64,000 bases of DNA, from IMG/VR virus record IMGVR_UViG_3300025389_001063. One strand, 5' to 3'. The notes under the pieces are model-generated. The model was not told the DNA's origin. It worked only from the letters and a program-made list of their open reading frames with translations, and did no database searches. Positions 6,121 to 20,940 of the stretch are shown piece by piece. Within the stretch, counting starts at the first letter, position 1. Each line of letters begins with the position of its first letter. A program made the translations under genes and the position numbers. Source of the DNA: a virus (taxonomy: Duplodnaviria > Caudoviricetes).

Positions 6121-6864
6121 ATGACACAGAGAAACAGAAAAGAATATAGATCAATCTTTATCTCAGATGTACATTTAGGTACAAAATACGCCAACGCCGA
6201 ATTACTCCTAGAATTTCTAAAAGATACAAGAGCCGAAAGATACTATCTAATCGGTGATATTATTGATGGTTGGTCTATGAAGAAGAAAGTGTACTGGCCA
6301 CAAGCACATAATAACATAGTACAATACTTTCTAAAACTATCCAAAAACGATCACAAGGTTTTTTACATAACAGGTAATCACGATGAGTTCTTAAGAGAAT
6401 ACGGTGGAACCACAATGGGAAATATTCATCTTGTAAATGAATGTATCCATCACGGTGAGAATGGAAAAAGATATCTAGTTATCCATGGTGACCAATTTGA
6501 TCTTGTTACCACTAACGCTAAATGGTTAGTTCATATCGGCAGTTGGGCATATGATTGTATGATTGAACTTAATACAAAATTACAATGGCTTTATAGAACT
6601 TTGGATATTAAAGGTTTCTCATTAAGTGCTTGGGCAAAGCATAGTGTTAAAGAAGCAGTAAACTTTATTGGTGATTACGAAGATGTTGTTTCAGACTATG
6701 CTGCTAAAAAATGTGTTGACGGAGTTATATGTGGTCACATACATTTTTGTAATATCAAAGAGATGAACGGCATACAATATATGAATACAGGTGACTGGGT
6801 AGAATCATGTACTGCTATAGTTGAACATCACAATGGAAAGTTTGAGTTGTTGAGGTTCTTATGA
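6121..6864 (+). CDS. plcP: PlcP-type phospholipase C (LpxH-like metallophosphoesterase)
   Basis: Motifs FISDVHLG, GDIIDGW, YWPQ, GNHDEFLR, HGDQFD, SLSAWAK..VKEAVNFIG, DGVICGHIH and YMNTGDWVESCTA. It sits next to an Agt-like glycosyltransferase. Confidence 0.8.
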   Translation: MTQRNRKEYRSIFISDVHLGTKYANAELLLEFLKDTRAERYYLIGDIIDGWSMKKKVYWPQAHNNIVQYFLKLSKNDHKVFYITGNHDEFLREYGGTTMGNIHLVNECIHHGENGKRYLVIHGDQFDLVTTNAKWLVHIGSWAYDCMIELNTKLQWLYRTLDIKGFSLSAWAKHSVKEAVNFIGDYEDVVSDYAAKKCVDGVICGHIHFCNIKEMNGIQYMNTGDWVESCTAIVEHHNGKFELLRFL

Positions 6865-7577
6865 GTAATTTAGAAAAAAATTATCGCAAGATTTATGAAA
6901 ATCATCATGGTTCTATCCCAAAAGGCTATCATATTCATCACAAGGATGGAAATCATCTAAACAATCATATAGATAACTTACAATGCGTATCAGTACAAGA
7001 TCATTTTAATATTCATTTCTCTCAAGGAGACTGGGGTGCTTGTTATGCTTTATTCAAAACAGGGCATATGACATTAACTCCAGAGCAGAGATCAGATATT
7101 GCTAGTCGCCGCGAAAAGAAAAAAGTAGAAGATAAAGAACATATTTTTCTTAATCCAGAATTTGTTGCTATGGTTGCCGAAATAAATAGCAAAAGATTAC
7201 AAGAATTAGCAAAAGAAGGTAAACATCCGGCACAATTAGAAAAAAATAGAAAAAAGTTATCCGAAAGAAATTCAAAAACACAAAGCGACTTATCTAAAAA
7301 AGGAAAACACGTTTTCCAAAAAAAGGAACATCGTGAAAAACTTTCTAAAATAGTTAGCGAATCTAATAAAAGACGAGCAACTGGAACTAACTGGTGGAAT
7401 AATGGACAGAAAAATAAACAATCAAAGGAATGTCCAGGCAATGGTTGGACCATTGGGAGGTTAGAGGTTAGTGGCTCTAAAGGATTCAAATGGTGGAATA
7501 ATGGAATTAATAATGTTTTTACAAAAACTTTCCCAGGCAATGACTGGGTATCAGGAAGAATAAAAGAGGATAAATGA
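6861..7577 (+). mobile_element. HNH homing endonuclease with duplicated C-terminal WWNNG DNA-binding repeats
   Basis: HIHHKDGNHLNNHIDNL...H motif and two WWNNG...PG..W..GR repeats. It is wedged between plcP and agt with 4-nt overlaps. Confidence 0.8.
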
Positions 7578-8581
7578 TGAAAATTGTTATTTTTTCAGAT
7601 GCTTCGAGTAAGAATCAAATAAATGGCGTAAAATATACAATTGAACAAACTAAAAAATGTCTTGAATTAAGAGGTTATACTGTTACAATAATTGGACCAG
7701 ATGACTATAAGGTTACAGTTCCTCTTCAACCTTCAACTGGTATCTATATGCCAATATTTCCTCTTGGTCTTGTTGAAGATGCACTCGAGGACGCAGATTA
7801 TATTCATATAGCGACGGAGGGATCAATTGGACTTGCTGCCAGATACGCCTGTAAAAAACAAAAAAAGAAATATACTACAAGTTTTCATACTAAATTTCCA
7901 GACTACCTTTATGAACATGCTTATATTCCACCCAGAGTTACTGGTCGGTATTTTCGTTGGTTTCATCGAAACAGCAGTTCTGTTCTCGTTACAAACGCCG
8001 CCATGGTTAACTATTGTTCTAAACTGGGCATCAAACACCTAACAATCTGGTCAAGGGGTGTTGATACAAATCTATTCAAACCAGATCCTAATTTTAAGAG
8101 ACAAGGATCTGCTATTCGTGCTGTCTACGTTGGTAGAGTTAGTGCCGAAAAGAATCTAGAAGCATTTCTCAAAATAGAAAATCCTAATATCATAAAATAT
8201 GTCATTGGTGACGGACCACAATTAGATTCCTATAAAGTATTATATCCTGATGCTTTTTTTCTTGGTAAGAAGACACATGAAGAAATTGCTAAATTATTAC
8301 AAACAATGGATGTCTTTGCTTGGCCTTCGCTAACGGATACATTTGGACTTGTTGTATTGGAGGCTATGGCTTGTGGATTACCTGTTGCTGGATTCGATAA
8401 TGAAGTTAATCGTTACCTTATTGAAGATGGTATTTCTGGATCATTAATGAAATTTGATCTTGAAGAAGGTATATTAGCATCTTTTCAATGCTTGAAGAAA
8501 GAAGATGCTATCGCTCGTGCCCAAAAGTTTTCCTGGGACGCAGCAACAGATCAATTTGTTGACAATCTAGTTAAGTCTTGA
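7574..8581 (+). CDS. agt: GT4 glycosyltransferase, Agt-like (glycolipid synthase)
   Basis: Motifs QINGV, IHIATEGSIGLAAR, YTTSFHTKFPDY, WSRGVD, YVGRVSAEKNL and FPS-like WPSLTDTFGLVVLEAMACGLPV. Confidence 0.75.
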   Translation: MMKIVIFSDASSKNQINGVKYTIEQTKKCLELRGYTVTIIGPDDYKVTVPLQPSTGIYMPIFPLGLVEDALEDADYIHIATEGSIGLAARYACKKQKKKYTTSFHTKFPDYLYEHAYIPPRVTGRYFRWFHRNSSSVLVTNAAMVNYCSKLGIKHLTIWSRGVDTNLFKPDPNFKRQGSAIRAVYVGRVSAEKNLEAFLKIENPNIIKYVIGDGPQLDSYKVLYPDAFFLGKKTHEEIAKLLQTMDVFAWPSLTDTFGLVVLEAMACGLPVAGFDNEVNRYLIEDGISGSLMKFDLEEGILASFQCLKKEDAIARAQKFSWDAATDQFVDNLVKS

Positions 8582-8611
8582 CATAGTTCTTAAAGGTGTT
8601 ATTATAACACT

Positions 8612-9241
8612 ATGAGATATCAGTTTCCAAAGATTGAGCATATTAACGATGTGCTACCCGCTATTCAGGACTCTCCCGAATTTATTGTGGCGGAGCGTGA
8701 ATACTTCACTGTGATTAACTATTTGGTTTCACATCCGGAGACCTTTCCCGAAGTGGACGAATCTCCCGAATTAGAATATGATCTGATCGCAAAGCGTAAC
8801 GCTATCCGTCGTGAATGCCGCGGACTTATCTTCTGTAAGACTACCGGTAAGATACTTCGGAGACCGTTTTCCAAATTCTTTAATATTGGAGAGCGAGACG
8901 AAACCCAACTTCATTTGTTAGACTTCACTGGTTCGCACGAGGTCTTTACCAAGGAAGACGGTTCTATGGTAACTCCATTTGAAGTTGGTTTTGGTTCCGG
9001 TGTAATCCGTTGGGCGACAAAGATGGGATTATCGGATGTGGCTCTGAACGCAGAAGTGTTTGTGGCAGAAAATCCAAAGTATCAAGAGTTTGCCAAATGG
9101 TGTATTGCCAATCGGCTAACTCCTATATTTGAATGGGTAAGCCGCAAGAATAGAATTGTTCTCGACTATCCCGAGGATAATCTTATTCTTCTTGCTGTTC
9201 GGCATATGGAGACGGGAGAATATCTTCCTTTGAAGGTATAG
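8612..9241 (+). CDS. rnlA: T4 Rnl1-like RNA ligase, N-terminal piece (motifs I to IIIa)
   Basis: ECRGLIF, RPFSKFFN, motif I TKEDGS, TPIFEW and LILLAVRHMETGEY. The ORF stops before motifs IV and V. Confidence 0.85.
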   Translation: MRYQFPKIEHINDVLPAIQDSPEFIVAEREYFTVINYLVSHPETFPEVDESPELEYDLIAKRNAIRRECRGLIFCKTTGKILRRPFSKFFNIGERDETQLHLLDFTGSHEVFTKEDGSMVTPFEVGFGSGVIRWATKMGLSDVALNAEVFVAENPKYQEFAKWCIANRLTPIFEWVSRKNRIVLDYPEDNLILLAVRHMETGEYLPLKV

Positions 9242-9941
9242 ATCCTAAATACTTCTCTATTGATGCTAAAGACAAACAGGTTCTTCTTTTGATTAACTCT
9301 TTGTTTTTAGCATCATTAAATGTTTCTTCAGTAAGTTTATCATAATGTATATAAAACTTTTGTAAGAACTTAATACATCTACCTTTTATAAGATTTTTCT
9401 TTCGGTCCTCATTAAACTTTATACCTGTTTGACCTAATGAAATTTTGCGGCGATCTTCCTCTGTTCTTTTAGATCCTTTCCATAAGGACCGCAATTTAGA
9501 ACGAGTTTCTTCGGAAACAATTCTACCTGTATTTCTTATTATTAGTGCTTCACGGACATGCTCAGGTCGAGGTTTTCCCTTATAACGATCTTTAGCCATA
9601 CTCGCATGTTCTTCTTTAATTGCTGTATATAATTTTGAATTAAGTTTTGTAGGCCATCTATTACTCGTTGACATTCTTTTATACGCACATAACATTCTAT
9701 ATTTCGGATCACCGATAACCATTCTTGTTAATAATAGATGACAAATATAATGTTCTCTACAAGTAAGAAGAACGAGATTATCTTTAGAATTACTTCCTCC
9801 TAAAGATTTTGGAAAAATATGATGAGATTCTAAAGTGCCATCGAACTTTTTGGATCTATTTTCGGATTTGGCTTTCTCAATAATGGCAAGATACCAATTT
9901 GTATATTTGTTTGTGAGAAAATATGTGCTATAAATATTCAT
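9183..9941 (-). mobile_element. MobE-like HNH/NUMOD3 homing endonuclease inserted antisense into the RNA ligase gene
   Basis: HHIFPKSLGGSNSKDNLVLLTCREHYICHLLL and NUMOD3-like repeats. Start ATG 9941 follows an AGGAG SD; its last codons overlap rnl on the opposite strand. Confidence 0.85.
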
Positions 9942-10007
9942 GCTGTTGCTCCTATAAAGCGATAGAGTAGTTGGGAACGCCAATTCCGTGAACTACACTC
10001 TTATTTA
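9942..10007 (-). repeat. Endonuclease leader element, copy A (late promoter, hairpin, SD)
   Basis: Near-identical to 20941-21008. Minus strand reads ATAAATA-AGAGTGTAGTTCACGGAA-TTGGCG-TTCCCAACTACTCT...AGGAGCAACAGC-ATG. Confidence 0.85.
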
Positions 10008-10020
10008 TTCTCCTAACAGG

Positions 10021-10048
10021 TTGACTGCTTTAGATATGATGCTATTAT
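10021..10048 (+). promoter_or_regulatory. Early promoter dedicated to the C-terminal RNA ligase piece
   Basis: TTGACT-N16-TATTAT, then AGGAG SD, then ATG 10067. Confidence 0.65.
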
Positions 10049-10066
10049 ACATTATAGGAGATTGTC

Positions 10067-10729
10067 ATGGACTTAATCAATCAACTTTTGGAACGCATTA
10101 AAACTTTGGACATCCCTGTTGTGGCAACACACGACCCTGTTGTTGATCCAAAGGCTTTTATGGATTATGTCCGCGACCTTAAGGATGCTGAAGGATTTGT
10201 TATTGCGTGGCCTTCCGGATACCGCGTAAAAACTAAAGCAGCAGATTACCTCCGCCTCCATAAAGTTAAGGACTCGCTCAGTCAGGAAAAGAATGTTATC
10301 GAAATGCTTATTAGCGAATCAATCGATGACGCTAAACCTTTCATGAGTGCCGAAGATCGTAAGAGAGTAGAGGAGTTTGAAGATGGATTTTGGCAGAATG
10401 TTGAATATTCTGCTAAAGAGTTTGAATCTTACTTTAATAGATTATCTATTGATCGTAAGACTTGGTCTCTAGAACATATGAAAGATATGAACGCGAAGAA
10501 TCCATTTTCTTCAAACATTGTGTTCAACTTGTACAATGGTAAAAGTGCTCTCGATACAATCATTGAGATCATTACTAAAAACTTATCAACTCAAACTCAA
10601 GTAGATAAAGTCCGCTGCCTTTGGGGTGGACTTTATTGGAATTATTCCTTTGGTGAAGAACAACAAAAAGTTGCCTCTGGCTTCTTTGGCAAGTGGGCTG
10701 AACATAAACATGTGGAGCAATTACAATGA
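10067..10729 (+). CDS. rnlA: T4 Rnl1-like RNA ligase, C-terminal piece (motifs IV and V plus helical domain)
   Basis: Motif IV AEGFVI, motif V RVKTKAADYLRLH, then IDDAKPF. Confidence 0.85.
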   Translation: MDLINQLLERIKTLDIPVVATHDPVVDPKAFMDYVRDLKDAEGFVIAWPSGYRVKTKAADYLRLHKVKDSLSQEKNVIEMLISESIDDAKPFMSAEDRKRVEEFEDGFWQNVEYSAKEFESYFNRLSIDRKTWSLEHMKDMNAKNPFSSNIVFNLYNGKSALDTIIEIITKNLSTQTQVDKVRCLWGGLYWNYSFGEEQQKVASGFFGKWAEHKHVEQLQ

Positions 10730-11160
10730 TGAAGGAGAATAGAATGCGTAAGATACTTTTAACAACTGCTGTTATCGCAGCACTTGCTATTCCTGCTGCA
10801 ACACCTGCCGATGCTTGGTGGCGAGGTGGTGGTTGGGGTTATGGCGGCGGCTGGGGCGGCTACGGAATGGGTTACGGTGGTTGGGGTTACGGAGGCTATG
10901 GAATGGGGATGATGGGCGCTGCTGCTGGTGGAGCATTACTTGGTGGTATCGTTGGTGGTGCTATTGCTGCTCAAGCTGCTCGTCCAGTTTATGCTGCTCC
11001 TGCTCCAGTTTATGCTGCTCCTGCTCCGGTAGTAGTTGAACAACCTGCAACAGTAGTAGTTGAACAACCTGCCCCTGTAGTTGTTGTAAAACGTAGATGT
11101 CAAATTATGCAAGAATGGGATGCATTAGAAGGCTATGTTTACAAAAAGGTATGTCTATGA
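10726..11160 (+). CDS. Secreted Gly/Tyr/Trp-rich protein with Pro-Val repeats
   Basis: Signal peptide (A-D-A), GGWGYGG repeats, tandem PVYAAPA and VVVEQPA repeats, and a C-terminal Cys pair. Confidence 0.7.
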   Translation: MMKENRMRKILLTTAVIAALAIPAATPADAWWRGGGWGYGGGWGGYGMGYGGWGYGGYGMGMMGAAAGGALLGGIVGGAIAAQAARPVYAAPAPVYAAPAPVVVEQPATVVVEQPAPVVVVKRRCQIMQEWDALEGYVYKKVCL

Positions 11161-11254
11161 TTACTGATATAATTTATGGAATGATATATCTAGGTGAGAT
11201 TGTAGCAGTCTTCACTGTTATAATCTCAATCTACTCAATCTTTAAGGGAAACAA

Positions 11255-11398
11255 ATGAGTGCATGGCTTATAGCAGTAACGGGAACAATCTATGCCGTAG
11301 TGGCAATTGAACAATTTTTAAAAGGCAATATGTCTATGACTATAGTTTATAGTGGATATGCCTTTAGCAATATTGGACTTTATCTTCTGGCTAAGTAG
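11255..11398 (+). CDS. Small membrane protein (47 aa, not in ORF track)
   Basis: MSAWLIAVTGTIYAVVAIEQFLKG...YAFSNIGLYLLAK. Confidence 0.55.
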   Translation: MSAWLIAVTGTIYAVVAIEQFLKGNMSMTIVYSGYAFSNIGLYLLAK

Positions 11399-11446
11399 TT
11401 GACACAGTTATTACAAGTGTTATTATATACTACAGGAGACAGACAG

Positions 11447-11887
11447 ATGACTAAGGTAATTGTGTTCGATATTGACGGAACATTAGCCGATATGGAACAC
11501 CGTAGACAATGGTTTGACGGTGGAAAAAAGAACTGGAATGCGTTCTTTGCTGCTCAGCATTTGGATCCAACACACGAAGATATTGTTTGGATGCTGAATC
11601 AGTTTCACCAGAGTGGTAATACAATTCTTATCTGTACTGGACGTAACGAAGGACACAGAGAAATATCTGAAGAGTGGTTAACAAAGAACAACATCGAGTA
11701 CGATAAGATGTATATGCGTCCACTTAACGATTTCCGTCAAGATGGCGTTGTTAAAGTTGATCTGTTAGCAAAAATCCGAGAAGAATACGGTGAACCTTGG
11801 TTGTGGATTGATGATCGCAAACAGGTTGTGGATGCTATTCGTGCTGAAGGAGTTCGTGTTCTTCAAGTTTGTGAGGGCGATTATTAA
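11447..11887 (+). CDS. HAD phosphatase (T4 Pnkp 3'-phosphatase domain-like)
   Basis: DIDGTLAD, TGR, MRP..D.RQD..VK and IDDRKQVVD motifs. Start ATG 11447 follows an AGGAG SD. Confidence 0.85.
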   Translation: MTKVIVFDIDGTLADMEHRRQWFDGGKKNWNAFFAAQHLDPTHEDIVWMLNQFHQSGNTILICTGRNEGHREISEEWLTKNNIEYDKMYMRPLNDFRQDGVVKVDLLAKIREEYGEPWLWIDDRKQVVDAIRAEGVRVLQVCEGDY

Positions 11888-13406: not shown

Positions 13407-13967
13407 ATGATCATTAAAGAACGTGATGTAATGGTGGACATCGAAACACTTGCCACCGGTCCAAACGCTGTCATCCTTACAATTGGTGCTTTAAGATTTG
13501 ACCCATATGGAGATGATCGTGATCGCAATGTTAAAAACATGCCTCATTTTTATTGTCGGGTTGATCCTGAAAGTTTTGATTATCCAGAGGCTGAAATCAA
13601 CAATGAAACCTTAGCATGGTGGAGTAAACAACCTCCTGAAATACAACACGAAGCATTTGGTGAAGGTGTTGAACGTTTACCTATCAAAGAAGCATTAACA
13701 CAATTCTTTGATTTTTGTAGACCACTAGATAGAATTTGGGCAAATGGTCCTGCCTTTGATATTATTATTTTAGAAACTGCTGCTAAACATGCCGGAGTGC
13801 CTGTACCTTGGAATTTCTGGCAGGCTCGAGATTGTAGAACCGTATTTCGCTTAAATCCACAAAGAGATCAAAAATCAAATAACCATAATGCCTTAGACGA
13901 TTGCTGGGTACAGACCTATAAATTACAGCAATGTTTAAAGGCATTAAATGTAACAAAGATGGACTAA
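13407..13967 (+). CDS. DEDDh 3'-5' exonuclease (phage/RNase AS-like)
   Basis: MVDIETL, WANGPAFD, RDCRT and HNALDD motifs. Confidence 0.8.
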   Translation: MIIKERDVMVDIETLATGPNAVILTIGALRFDPYGDDRDRNVKNMPHFYCRVDPESFDYPEAEINNETLAWWSKQPPEIQHEAFGEGVERLPIKEALTQFFDFCRPLDRIWANGPAFDIIILETAAKHAGVPVPWNFWQARDCRTVFRLNPQRDQKSNNHNALDDCWVQTYKLQQCLKALNVTKMD

Positions 13968-17318: not shown

Positions 17319-18215
17319 TCATTCTTTTCTTGCTTTTCTATCAAGGCCGTTTTTACAGATTTCTTTAGAACAAATAACAGGATCTTTAGGCCACTCAATA
17401 GGCATATTATAAATGTTACCTATTACTCCTCCTTCATGACACCACCCTCTAGAAACATTTCCTCTGGGATCAATTACTAAAGTATCAATTCCTGCATAAC
17501 AGGTCATATTAGTATAAGAAGATTGTTCTGATGTTTTAATAACTATACCAGTTGGATCAATTGATATATCCTCATTGAATGAATTTTCGATTGATTCTTT
17601 CATTTTATTAAATTTATACCATTGTCGATGAGTGTAGGGGAGATATGTATTATTTCCTTTTCCAAAATCACTGTAAAGAAGTTGTAAATTACCTAAACCG
17701 TATTTTCTTCTAAAATATTTTACATACTTAATACCTCTATCAAAAACTTCATCGTGATTTGTAACTGGAAATAAAATTTCCATTTCTACAGGATGATATT
17801 TGTCATTCTCTCTTAATAAAGAAATAACATTTTCTATATGAGATATATCACAAAATTCTTGATGAACAGAAATAATTACTTTTGATAAAAATTGTCGAGA
17901 TTTCTTCCACCAATCTAAACTTGCACTTCCATTTGTTCTAAGAATTAAATTTGTGGGATAGTTGTGTAGACGATTTCCTATATTGGGAATTTTTTCATAA
18001 AGAGTAGGTTCACCACCTATAAATTCAAATATCACATCTCTTCCTAGAGAATCATAATGTGCAAAAATATCTGTACAAACATTAATGATAGTTTCGTCAT
18101 TAGGATAAGGATTATCTCCTCTTTTGAGAAGATCTAAGCAGTAACTACAATTGTAATTACAACTATTACTTAAAACCCATTCTACTATAGTCTTAGGTCG
18201 TTCAAAGTCATCCAT
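17319..18215 (-). CDS. Radical SAM protein with a C-terminal SPASM/Twitch-like domain
   Basis: CNYNCSYC, GGEP, TNG, CYAG...WC and C-terminal C...C motifs. Confidence 0.85.
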   Translation of the reverse strand: MDDFERPKTIVEWVLSNSCNYNCSYCLDLLKRGDNPYPNDETIINVCTDIFAHYDSLGRDVIFEFIGGEPTLYEKIPNIGNRLHNYPTNLILRTNGSASLDWWKKSRQFLSKVIISVHQEFCDISHIENVISLLRENDKYHPVEMEILFPVTNHDEVFDRGIKYVKYFRRKYGLGNLQLLYSDFGKGNNTYLPYTHRQWYKFNKMKESIENSFNEDISIDPTGIVIKTSEQSSYTNMTCYAGIDTLVIDPRGNVSRGWCHEGGVIGNIYNMPIEWPKDPVICSKEICKNGLDRKARKE

Positions 18216-18720
18216 CTAAATAATTTAGCCAACTTTCGTGAGGAACTTGCCATTCCTTCTTTTTACGATTGTTAGCCAGCATCCAGTAATTTGGCATTTC
18301 TGGATCTATCTTTGGACGAATTTTAGCATTATTGCCTTTGCTATTATTACAAGGATAACATGCTGTAACAACATTATGCCAAGTTGTTTTACCACCCTTA
18401 GATACAGGAACAACGTGGTCAATTGTACATTGTTTAACTGTTAAATTGTCTCCACAATATTGACAAGTGTAGTTGTCGCGTAGAAAAACCCATCTACGAT
18501 TAAATCTTACACGGGACTTTGGTTGCCAATATTCATTGAGCATAATAACTGCGGGTACTTTAATAGTATGATTGGGAGAATGTATCTCCCAATTATCATA
18601 TTCGTGTAGTACCTTAACTTTATCTAACCAAATATATCGTATTGCACTTTGCCAATCTATTGCCGACAATGGAACTAAATTCATAGGTTGTGCGTCAGCA
18701 TTTAACAATAATGTATTCAC
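18208..18720 (-). CDS. HNH endonuclease (McrA-like, LLLNAD N-terminus)
   Basis: VFLRDNYTCQYCG, TIDHVVPVSKGG and NVVTACYPCNNSKG motifs. Confidence 0.85.
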   Translation of the reverse strand: MNTLLLNADAQPMNLVPLSAIDWQSAIRYIWLDKVKVLHEYDNWEIHSPNHTIKVPAVIMLNEYWQPKSRVRFNRRWVFLRDNYTCQYCGDNLTVKQCTIDHVVPVSKGGKTTWHNVVTACYPCNNSKGNNAKIRPKIDPEMPNYWMLANNRKKKEWQVPHESWLNYLDG

Positions 18721-18765: not shown

Positions 18766-19437
18766 GTGTATTTACAGAACAAATATACCACTTGGTATTA
18801 TTTAATAATAGCACAGGCCCAGAAAAGAATCAACCTGCCTATTTTCGTTGAGAAACATCATATCATTCCAAAATCATTAGGTGGTAATAATAGTGATGAC
18901 AATTTGGTTAGATTAACACCGAGAGAGCACTTTGTTTGTCATCTTCTCTTAACGAAAATGGTTACAGGTGATGCCCAAAGAAAAATGTGGTTTGCTTCTT
19001 ATTTAATGATGCGAGGAACAAAAAGATATAAACCTTCTGGAAGATTATATGAGATTCTTAAACAGAAAATGATACAATCACTTAAAGAAAGACCTGGACC
19101 AAATTTAGGAAAAAAACTTTCTGAAGAACATAAGAAGAAACTTAGTTTAGCACAAAAGGGAATTCCTAAAGGACCAATGTCTGAAGAGCATAGAGAGAAA
19201 CTAAGAAAACCTAAAACAGAAGAGCATAAGAAGAAACTATCAGAAGTAAGATTAGGTAAATCTTGGGGACATAAACATTCGGAAGAAACTAAACAAAAAA
19301 TGTCTAATTGGCAAAGGGGTATTCCTAAACCTAAAGTAACATGTGAGCATTGTGGGAAAGAATTGTCACTAATGAATTATAAAAAATGGCATGGAGATAA
19401 ATGTGTCAACTGCGGCGGTAAGAGTCATGTAAAATGA
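18766..19437 (+). mobile_element. MobE-like HNH/NUMOD3 homing endonuclease
   Basis: EKHHIIPKSLGGNNSDDNLVRLTPREHFVCHLLL, several SEEHKKKLS repeats and a C-terminal CxxC. Confidence 0.85.
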
Positions 19438-20349: not shown

Positions 20350-20940
20350 CTATGCTTGTAAATCTTTTTTTCTATTCTTTGCTGCCAAACTTAATTTTTC
20401 TCGGTGTTCATCACTAAAAGTTATTCCTTTTCTTGATTCTGATATTTTCTTCTTTGTTTCTTCAGACCTTTTACTTCCTTTAACTGCTCCGCCTACTATA
20501 TTAGTCTTAGATGCTAGACTCATTTTCTGCTTTGTTTCTTTTGATACTATTTTTCCTTTATGGGCTCTACTTATAGCCTCTCTATGTTGATCAGTTCTTC
20601 CAATAAGTTTATGTGCTTCAGAAAGTTGTATTCGTAGAATTTCAAACATTCTTGAGCACGGAACATATCTATCCATTGATTTAGTTTTTCTGTTCATCAT
20701 AGAATTTAAGGCAAATATCATCTTACTTTTATTTTTATCAGATGTTATTCTAACTAATAACAAATGGCATATAAAGTGTTCTCTTGCGGTTAAGACAGCA
20801 AGATTATCTGCGTCATTTGTTCCGCCTAATGATCTTGGAATGATATGATGTTTTTCTTTATACCCTTCTAACTTTCGGGTCTTTGCTCTATTACAAATGT
20901 CTTGATAAATTTTGAGATATTTGTTATCAATAAATATCAT
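20350..20940 (-). mobile_element. MobE-like HNH/NUMOD3 homing endonuclease
   Basis: EKHHIIPRSLGGTNDADNLAVLTAREHFICHLLL and SEETKKKIS repeats. Confidence 0.85.

Follow-up and report, generated by a model that had tools for sequence, protein, structure and literature searches.

Can an enzyme whose active site is divided over two open reading frames (ORFs), with the gene of a homing endonuclease between them, still do its work? The question is raised by a DNA stretch of 64,000 nucleotides (nt) from a virus of the Caudoviricetes (IMG/VR record IMGVR_UViG_3300025389_001063; hereafter the window). It belongs to a giant uncultured phage, which carries its T4-type RNA-repair ligase (Rnl1) as two separately positioned ORFs. 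The answer we favor is that this Rnl1-type ligase is probably made in two pieces, each with its own transcription and translation, that a mobile cassette is lodged between their genes, and that the enzyme works as two chains. An earlier, sequence-only reading of the window had taken the locus for a two-chain nucleotidyltransferase, and comparison with related loci lends this support: the split recurs in many divergent phages, the catalytic residues are kept, the pieces appear to be under purifying selection, and some split alleles possess no endonuclease gene. Assembly of the two chains and their activity are predicted from sequence.

The divided ligase and the gene between its pieces

Piece 1 (8612..9241, plus strand) encodes 209 amino acids (aa) which make up the N-terminal part of the Rnl1 nucleotidyltransferase domain, including motifs I (TKEDGS, with lysine K114), III, and IIIa. 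It matches positions 1-153 of the 227 in Pfam family PF09511 (RNA_lig_T4_1; E 2.5e-23) and 32-194 of the 377 in phrog_562, and its aligned span on T4 Rnl1 is residues 52-191. The protein ends in ...RHMETGEYLPLKV, with the stop five residues past TGEY. Piece 2 (10067..10729, plus strand; 220 aa) comprises one helix, the strands of motif IV (EGFV; E42, G43) and motif V (KTK; K55, K57), and the Rnl1 C-terminal helical domain (PF20819, T4_Rnl1_C; 35.7 bits against a cut-off of 27). Its matches are to positions 209-366 of phrog_562 and to residues 212-360 of T4 Rnl1, where motifs IV and V align with the EGYV...KIK region, which places the break point on T4 Rnl1 at approximately residues 191-196. 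The features characteristic of the Rnl1 family, namely motif I, motifs IV/V, and the C-terminal helical domain, are all found across the two pieces. Together these match neighboring parts of the ligases of the cultured phages Cr30, B23, and DSS3P8, each of which has one intact ligase gene of 398-414 aa. A search for a second Rnl1 in the window found none.

The location of the break was examined on an AlphaFold model of an intact sister ligase (locus L092; predicted local distance difference test score, pLDDT, 87). Foldseek returned T4 Rnl1 structures as the top PDB matches of this model (2C5U, 5TT6, and 9DO4; E 2e-19 to 1e-17, the best being 2C5U at 2e-19). On this model the break lies in the loop that leads from strand 195-203 and TGEY (206-209) to helix 212-220. 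Almost no residues have been lost at the break, since ...TGEYLPLKV (stop) plus MDLINQLLERIKTLDIPVV corresponds to ...TGEYASYKVMVENAKAWNIDVV, and the added tails are short and variable: 3-7 residues after TGEY in piece 1, and a head in piece 2 that is mostly native helix plus some six residues. At its other end piece 2 bears a C-terminal extension of about 20 residues (EEQQKVASGFFGKWAEHKHVEQLQ; window 10660-10729), which is common to the intact ligase of locus L096 and missing in the other split alleles.

Between the pieces, on the minus strand and antisense to the ligase, lies a free-standing MobE-like HNH homing endonuclease gene (9183..9941; 252 aa). The HNH match is to PF01844 (23.6 bits, cut-off 21.4), phrog_655 is matched at E 1.8e-41, and the protein is 40-43% identical to products of genes annotated as MobE in Sinorhizobium phages. 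Its start is likely the ATG at 9941-9939, behind AGGAG, which gives the 252 aa product; a TTG at 9983 was considered and is disfavored, the ATG at 9941 being the one that sits behind AGGAG. The same 252 aa ORF is called by the gene callers in loci L004 and L005, and the window protein is 98.8% identical to that of L004. The endonuclease and piece 1 converge and overlap by 59 nt (9183..9241, both strands), such that the last 19 endonuclease codons are antisense to the conserved ...LLAVRHMETGEYLPLKV end of piece 1. Inside this end, just where the antisense ORF stops, the plus strand has a hairpin that resembles a terminator and is followed by a T-rich tail (9155-9181).

Both ligase pieces are preceded by predicted expression signals. 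A match to a sigma-70-type, early-like promoter is found ahead of piece 1 (8578..8605, plus strand; TTGACA-16-TATTAT with TG upstream, 11 of 12 matches to the consensus). The interval from the endonuclease to piece 2 is a divergent control region (9942..10066), which on the minus strand holds the endonuclease Shine-Dalgarno sequence (SD) AGGAG and an ATAAATA element resembling a T4 late promoter (10002-10008, in the block 9995-10012, upstream of the endonuclease start). On the plus strand it holds the restart module of piece 2, consisting of a consensus match to a sigma-70-type promoter (10021..10048; TTGACT-16-TATTAT with TG upstream) and an SD, AGGAG (10056..10060), 6 nt before the ATG at 10067. 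This layout is common to 13 of the 15 split loci compared: a ...tacRct..TATTTAT block (TATTTAT being the reverse complement of ATAAATA) faces the endonuclease gene and is followed by a TTGAC(A/T) -35 element, a -10 element, a purine-rich SD, and a start codon. The piece 2 start codon in the other split loci is positioned 9-16 codons ahead of an invariant IPVV, with a comparable SD. The downstream piece has, as predicted from these motifs, its own translation and transcription start, the signals of which are conserved across cassettes. The conserved ATAAATA/TATAAATA block may represent a T4-type late promoter for the endonuclease.

A permissive Rfam scan of 8000-11500 revealed no intron, giving nothing at E<=1 beyond chance matches to microRNA and pseudoknot models, and Pfam revealed no intein or Hint domain in either piece. 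In these respects the description given by the sequence-only reading was accurate. The ORFs are where it had placed them and, as the Pfam and phrog_562 matches indicate, the active site is divided over both; the antisense, free-standing MobE-like HNH gene that it had recognized between them is borne out by PF01844, phrog_655, and the MobE-annotated relatives; the TTGAC promoter and AGGAG assigned to piece 2 are the elements described above; and its statement that no recognizable intron is present agrees with both the Rfam and the Pfam results.

Spread of the split and movement of its core

The split is widespread in wild phages. A set of 160 related loci was assembled from IMG/VR and Joint Genome Institute (JGI) metagenomes together with exact-protein look-ups, and 158 of these are complete: 130 have an undivided gene, three are split without an insert, and 25 contain an insert at precisely this position. 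One additional split locus without an endonuclease gene, L170 (piece 1 69% identical), lies outside the 158, so that the endonuclease gene is present in 25 of 29 split loci. The inserts measure 640-950 nt and represent 17 distinct sequences among the 25 loci. Each of the 25 holds a single ORF, which is always an antisense endonuclease of the HNH or GIY-YIG type and which invariably overlaps the 3' end of piece 1 by 14-68 nt. Two unrelated nuclease families, often combined with NUMOD3 motifs, are thereby found at one site, HNH in the window and in L004, L012, L019, L022, L036, L128, and L129, and GIY-YIG in L006, L008, L011, L014, L017, L023, and L076. Toward the C-terminus the HNH protein of the window resembles its GIY-YIG counterpart in L014 (29% identity over 92 residues, E 2e-4), and part of this similarity stems from their common antisense overlap. 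The two ligase pieces are adjacent in every split locus, and their relative reading frame varies from one locus to another.

A protein search limited to lengths of 114-366 aa gave 319 relatives of piece 1, most of 190-226 aa. Among the best 120 short homologues 111 stop 3-10 residues past the (T/S)GxY motif, and KxDGS is kept in all 120. Among the best-matching of 1680 matching records no cultured phage with this split was found, those examined being all intact, and a megablast search of cultured phages with 8500-10800 as the query found nothing. In the JGI metagenome scan no relative exceeded 59% identity; it was the exact-protein look-ups that supplied the close ones.

The four split alleles that have no endonuclease gene differ at the junction. 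In L010 (4537-4660) the spacer is 10 nt, in L055 (4549-4670) stop and start are 1 nt apart behind GGAG, in L136 (937-1060) the ORFs overlap by 14 nt behind GGGGAG, and in L170 (4640-4765) the spacer is 101 nt. L170 lacks the endonuclease ORF and retains the restart block almost base for base (TTGACT-16-TATTAT, AGGAG, ATG). Spacers of 101 nt or less are far too short to hold a ribozyme. All four alleles have the look of remnants from which the endonuclease gene has been lost, and the split, to judge from their sequences, outlasts that loss.

How the window acquired its cassette can be read from a sliding comparison with L004. A tract of approximately 1.5 kb (~8830..10330), comprising the endonuclease gene, some 350 nt of piece 1, and some 265 nt of piece 2, is ~99% identical in DNA, whereas the flanks are 55-70% identical. 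The outer ligase parts and neighboring genes of L004 are 87-94% identical in DNA to those of the intact L092, and the middle 584 nt of the L092 ligase gene are replaced by 1439 nt in L004; the outer ligase parts of the window are closest to those of the intact L096. Since the endonuclease-free relatives L092 and L096 keep whole genes, the same cassette and flanking core were evidently copied into two different backbones. The comparison indicates that the cassette of the window arrived by homing with co-conversion, and that the same event took place independently in the L004 backbone.

The idea that the endonuclease split the ligase therefore needs to be qualified. The endonuclease gene does divide the ligase, as the sequence-only reading had stated; the ~99% identical tract, the backbones matching L096 and L092, and the separate trees for core and outer parts show that no intact gene was cut de novo here; an already split core, together with the endonuclease and restart signals, was copied in by homing. 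For these trees a core segment that surrounds the split, from IRRECRG... to ...SQEKNVIEML, was separated from the outer parts of the ligase alignment, which included 21 split alleles; a tree of the whole protein was set aside as a history of the split, being confounded by mosaicism. The core tree requires three split-state changes, and its largest all-split clade holds 19 of the 21 alleles (Shimodaira-Hasegawa-like approximate likelihood ratio test, SH-aLRT, 98). A single clade of all 21 is not rejected (approximately unbiased test, p-AU 0.62), the constrained tree being 10 log-likelihood (lnL) units higher. Without the junction columns the count is four changes, and one clade is again not rejected (p-AU 0.36). 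The outer tree, by comparison, requires nine changes and rejects one clade (delta lnL 585, p-AU 1e-5). This contrast indicates that the split-type core has its own history and moves between backbones, and the data fit one to a few origins for it. The core tree shows at least four switches of nuclease type, and three endonuclease-free rows are nested in it beside endonuclease-bearing ones, which fits turnover and loss of the endonuclease at a site that would have stayed split throughout.

The same observations might be read in the reverse order, with the ligase becoming two genes first and the gap being colonized afterwards by successive endonuclease genes as lodgers. The repeated changes between HNH and GIY-YIG, the existence of split alleles without an endonuclease gene, and a single origin of the core that is not rejected would all suit such a history. 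We nevertheless consider it unlikely: L170 keeps the promoter block of the cassette, including the element upstream of the endonuclease start, and is hence derived, not ancestral; the endonuclease-free rows are nested next to endonuclease-bearing ones; and 25 of the 29 split loci contain the gene. The proposal that the ligase works as two chains is unaffected by whether the split or the endonuclease came first.

As for what is moving, we tentatively put forward a possibility to which we would give slightly less than even chances. The mobile unit may be a cassette in which an exchangeable HNH or GIY-YIG endonuclease gene is combined with the restart module (promoter, SD, and ATG) and with a pre-fragmented version of the core of its own target. 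The core would possibly be resistant to cleavage and co-adapted to existence as two chains, and each homing event would overwrite the middle of an intact ligase gene with a version already in two pieces. Fragmentation would then proceed as a ratchet, since a phage that lost the endonuclease gene would be left with a ligase divided for good.

Selection and the case for two chains

Ratios of nonsynonymous to synonymous substitution rates (dN/dS) were calculated pairwise by the method of Nei and Gojobori (NG86) on pairs chosen by hand. Those for piece 1 are 0.08-0.23 among split pairs, with one near-identical pair at 0.5, and those for piece 2 are 0.12-0.39; 17 pairs of intact genes gave 0.11-0.33. 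Within all-split clades the values are 0.08-0.18, and for the core beside the split, comparing the window with L170, L171, L012, and L014, they are 0.04-0.14 at a synonymous divergence (dS) above 1.4. The endonuclease genes are also constrained (0.14-0.16). The value for the window against L004 was not counted as functional evidence, for it mostly reflects divergence of the backbones while their genes were intact. E42, G43, K55, and K57 are invariant in all 23 stand-alone piece 2 proteins. As estimated from these substitution patterns, both pieces are under purifying selection comparable to that on intact genes. The comparison with unsplit homologues, which the sequence-only reading had proposed as a check, gave comparable ranges, split genes having values of 0.04-0.39 and intact ones 0.11-0.33.

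Might the gene still be dead or dying? If the cassette had only just been copied in and the ligase were dispensable owing to other ligase-like genes in the phage, the ORFs would be open merely for lack of time to decay. The ~99% identity of the tract to L004 does make the event a young one, and an Rnl2-type gene is found near the split ligase in L008. This we regard as decidedly unlikely. Versions of the split core differ from one another at dS above 1.4 and still have the low ratios given above, the all-split clades are similarly constrained, the catalytic residues are invariant (120/120 for piece 1, 23/23 for piece 2), and endonuclease-free split alleles stay open. The functional case rests on these older split lineages, because the cassette of the window is too recent to carry a signal of selection.

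A further consideration is which activity selection preserves. T4 gp63 (Rnl1) has a second, separable activity in tail-fiber attachment. The phrog_562 annotation likewise names tail-fiber attachment, and the halves could in principle be kept for this or for separate binding functions, with no ligase being formed. That would be highly improbable, since the invariant residues are those of nucleotidyl transfer (the lysine of KxDG, EG in motif IV, and KxK in motif V), the pieces are neighbors in every case, and a Pnkp-type phosphatase gene stays beside them. Least of all, and to our minds scarcely credibly, the pieces might be rejoined into a single-chain enzyme by an unrecognized ribozyme, a split intein, bypassing, or frameshifting: a novel RNA element could escape Rfam, and the ORFs of L055 and L136, which abut or overlap in different frames, are readable as programmed frameshifting, but the locus has no Rfam match, the endonuclease ORF fills 9183-9941 and promoters and SDs take up the remaining 124 nt, neither piece has a Hint or intein domain, the tail of piece 1 is a mere 3-7 residues long, piece 2 begins about 10-15 residues before IPVV, the relative frame of the pieces differs among loci, and a conserved SD and start codon stand ahead of piece 2.

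Several points weigh against a functional two-chain enzyme. Values of dS are saturated for many pairs, most of all the deepest, and the pairs were hand-picked. The open frames of the window are uninformative on function, its cassette being so recent. In the whole-protein tree the split clades have rather long branches, a possible sign that constraint has relaxed somewhat. The promoters are no more than consensus matches, and TATAAATA occurs in the window about as often as chance predicts (10 matches where 9.8 are expected). Finally, the activity that selection maintains could be tail-fiber attachment and not ligation.

With these points taken into account, a working two-chain ligase remains the likely outcome. 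Purifying selection, invariant catalytic residues, the position of the break in a loop, and the adjoining Pnkp-type phosphatase favor separate translation followed by noncovalent assembly. We envisage that the divergent control region supplies a promoter, an SD, and an ATG which would restart the ligase just before a native helix, and that the two polypeptides would then associate noncovalently. Piece 1 would contribute the AMP-accepting lysine and motifs III and IIIa, and piece 2 motifs IV and V and the C-domain, to give a composite active site. The composite ligase would presumably seal broken RNA alongside the neighboring Pnkp-like phosphatase. Being antisense, the endonuclease gene would have to rely on a promoter of its own, probably a late one.

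Gene neighborhood, known systems, and significance

The Pnkp-type phosphatase gene, of the haloacid dehalogenase (HAD) class, is located at 11399..11887 (plus strand; PF25109, E 6.4e-29). A gene of this type also adjoins the split ligase in L004 and L006, and its product is likely the partner of the ligase in a pathway of RNA end-healing. An Rv2179c-like 3'-5' exoribonuclease gene (13407-13967, plus strand; PF16473, E 3.5e-36) follows the ligase and the phosphatase at a distance of a few genes, and may belong to the same RNA-processing neighborhood. The end of piece 2 overlaps the start of the next gene at 10726. This ORF (10726-11160, plus strand) has a hydrophobic N-terminus, a stretch rich in Gly, Tyr, and Trp, and AAPAPV/VVEQPA repeats; its Pfam matches (cuticle, chorion, and PXPV) are weak and sub-threshold, and the gene is absent or very different in L004. 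Four further HNH endonuclease genes are found in the first 21 kb of the window (6861-7577, plus; 18208-18720, minus; 18766-19437, plus; and 20392-20934, minus). The third and fourth are MobE-like paralogues of the ligase-borne gene (~36-40% identity), whereas the first is located between a metallophosphatase gene and a glycosyltransferase gene.

The closest precedent is Aeromonas phage Aeh1, in which the ribonucleotide reductase is a case of "genes-in-pieces" (nrdA-a / mobE / nrdA-b; Crona et al. 2011, PMC3045599). Aeh1 NrdA is the only endonuclease-fragmented enzyme that has been shown experimentally to work as separate chains, and its split is unique among 1200 nrdA genes (PMC3045599). In both systems a MobE-type HNH gene is inserted into an enzyme gene between two secondary-structure elements, and the active-site residues are divided over two ORFs, separately translated in Aeh1 and predicted to be so here, with no intron or intein. 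The differences are considerable. The host gene encodes Rnl1, where that of Aeh1 is nrdA; the endonuclease gene runs antisense to the ligase and overlaps piece 1, whereas mobE of Aeh1 is co-directional with its host gene and overlaps nrdA-b; and piece 2 has its own predicted promoter. The added tails are very short, whereas those of Aeh1 are essential assembly domains. The split arrangement of the ligase is represented by hundreds of wild sequences with exchangeable nuclease types, and the joint function of its pieces is predicted from sequence.

The T4 enzyme itself (gp63; PDB 2C5U, 5TT6, and 9DO4) shares with the divided ligase its family and, as judged from the L092 model, its fold, along with motifs I, III, IIIa, IV, and V and the C-terminal helical domain, and a Pnkp-like partner gene lies near the divided ligase as in T4. 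T4 Rnl1 is by contrast a single chain of 374 aa, and the identity is ~24%, as measured on the intact sister L092. The fractured genes with split inteins described by Dassa et al. 2009 (PMC2677866) resemble the present locus in that a conserved phage gene occupies two ORFs with an endonuclease between them, mainly in metagenomes. They differ in having intein halves; no protein splicing is expected for the ligase pieces because Pfam shows no such halves and the tails are too short. The free-standing endonucleases of T-even phages spread through co-conversion of markers that flank them (PMC2988022; PMC10448857). They have the same HNH/GIY-YIG plus NUMOD3 architecture and leave a similar mosaic footprint of near-identical DNA around the endonuclease and divergent flanks. 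Normally they are intergenic, unlike the element described here, which is intragenic and co-converts a pre-split core of its target gene.

Full-text searches of the literature found no report of an endonuclease-split Rnl1. The split Rnl1 is probably a widespread new case of the known "genes-in-pieces" phenomenon. If it is confirmed, this would be the second working endonuclease-fragmented enzyme after Aeh1 NrdA, and one of a different fold. In annotation, ORFs of ~200 aa that match RNA ligase ought not to be labeled truncated pseudogenes, and RNA ligases that are conditional or built from two components could possibly be engineered on a naturally split Rnl1. The wild alleles, more than 100 in number, form a natural series, namely intact, split with HNH, split with GIY-YIG, and split with the endonuclease lost. 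With this series one can test how a break through the active site is tolerated by an enzyme, whether a target-gene core adapted to the split is spread by homing, and whether a gene stays fragmented after the selfish element responsible has gone. Should the mobile unit be a cassette with a pre-fragmented core, these phages would illustrate a natural route from selfish elements to stable multi-subunit enzymes.

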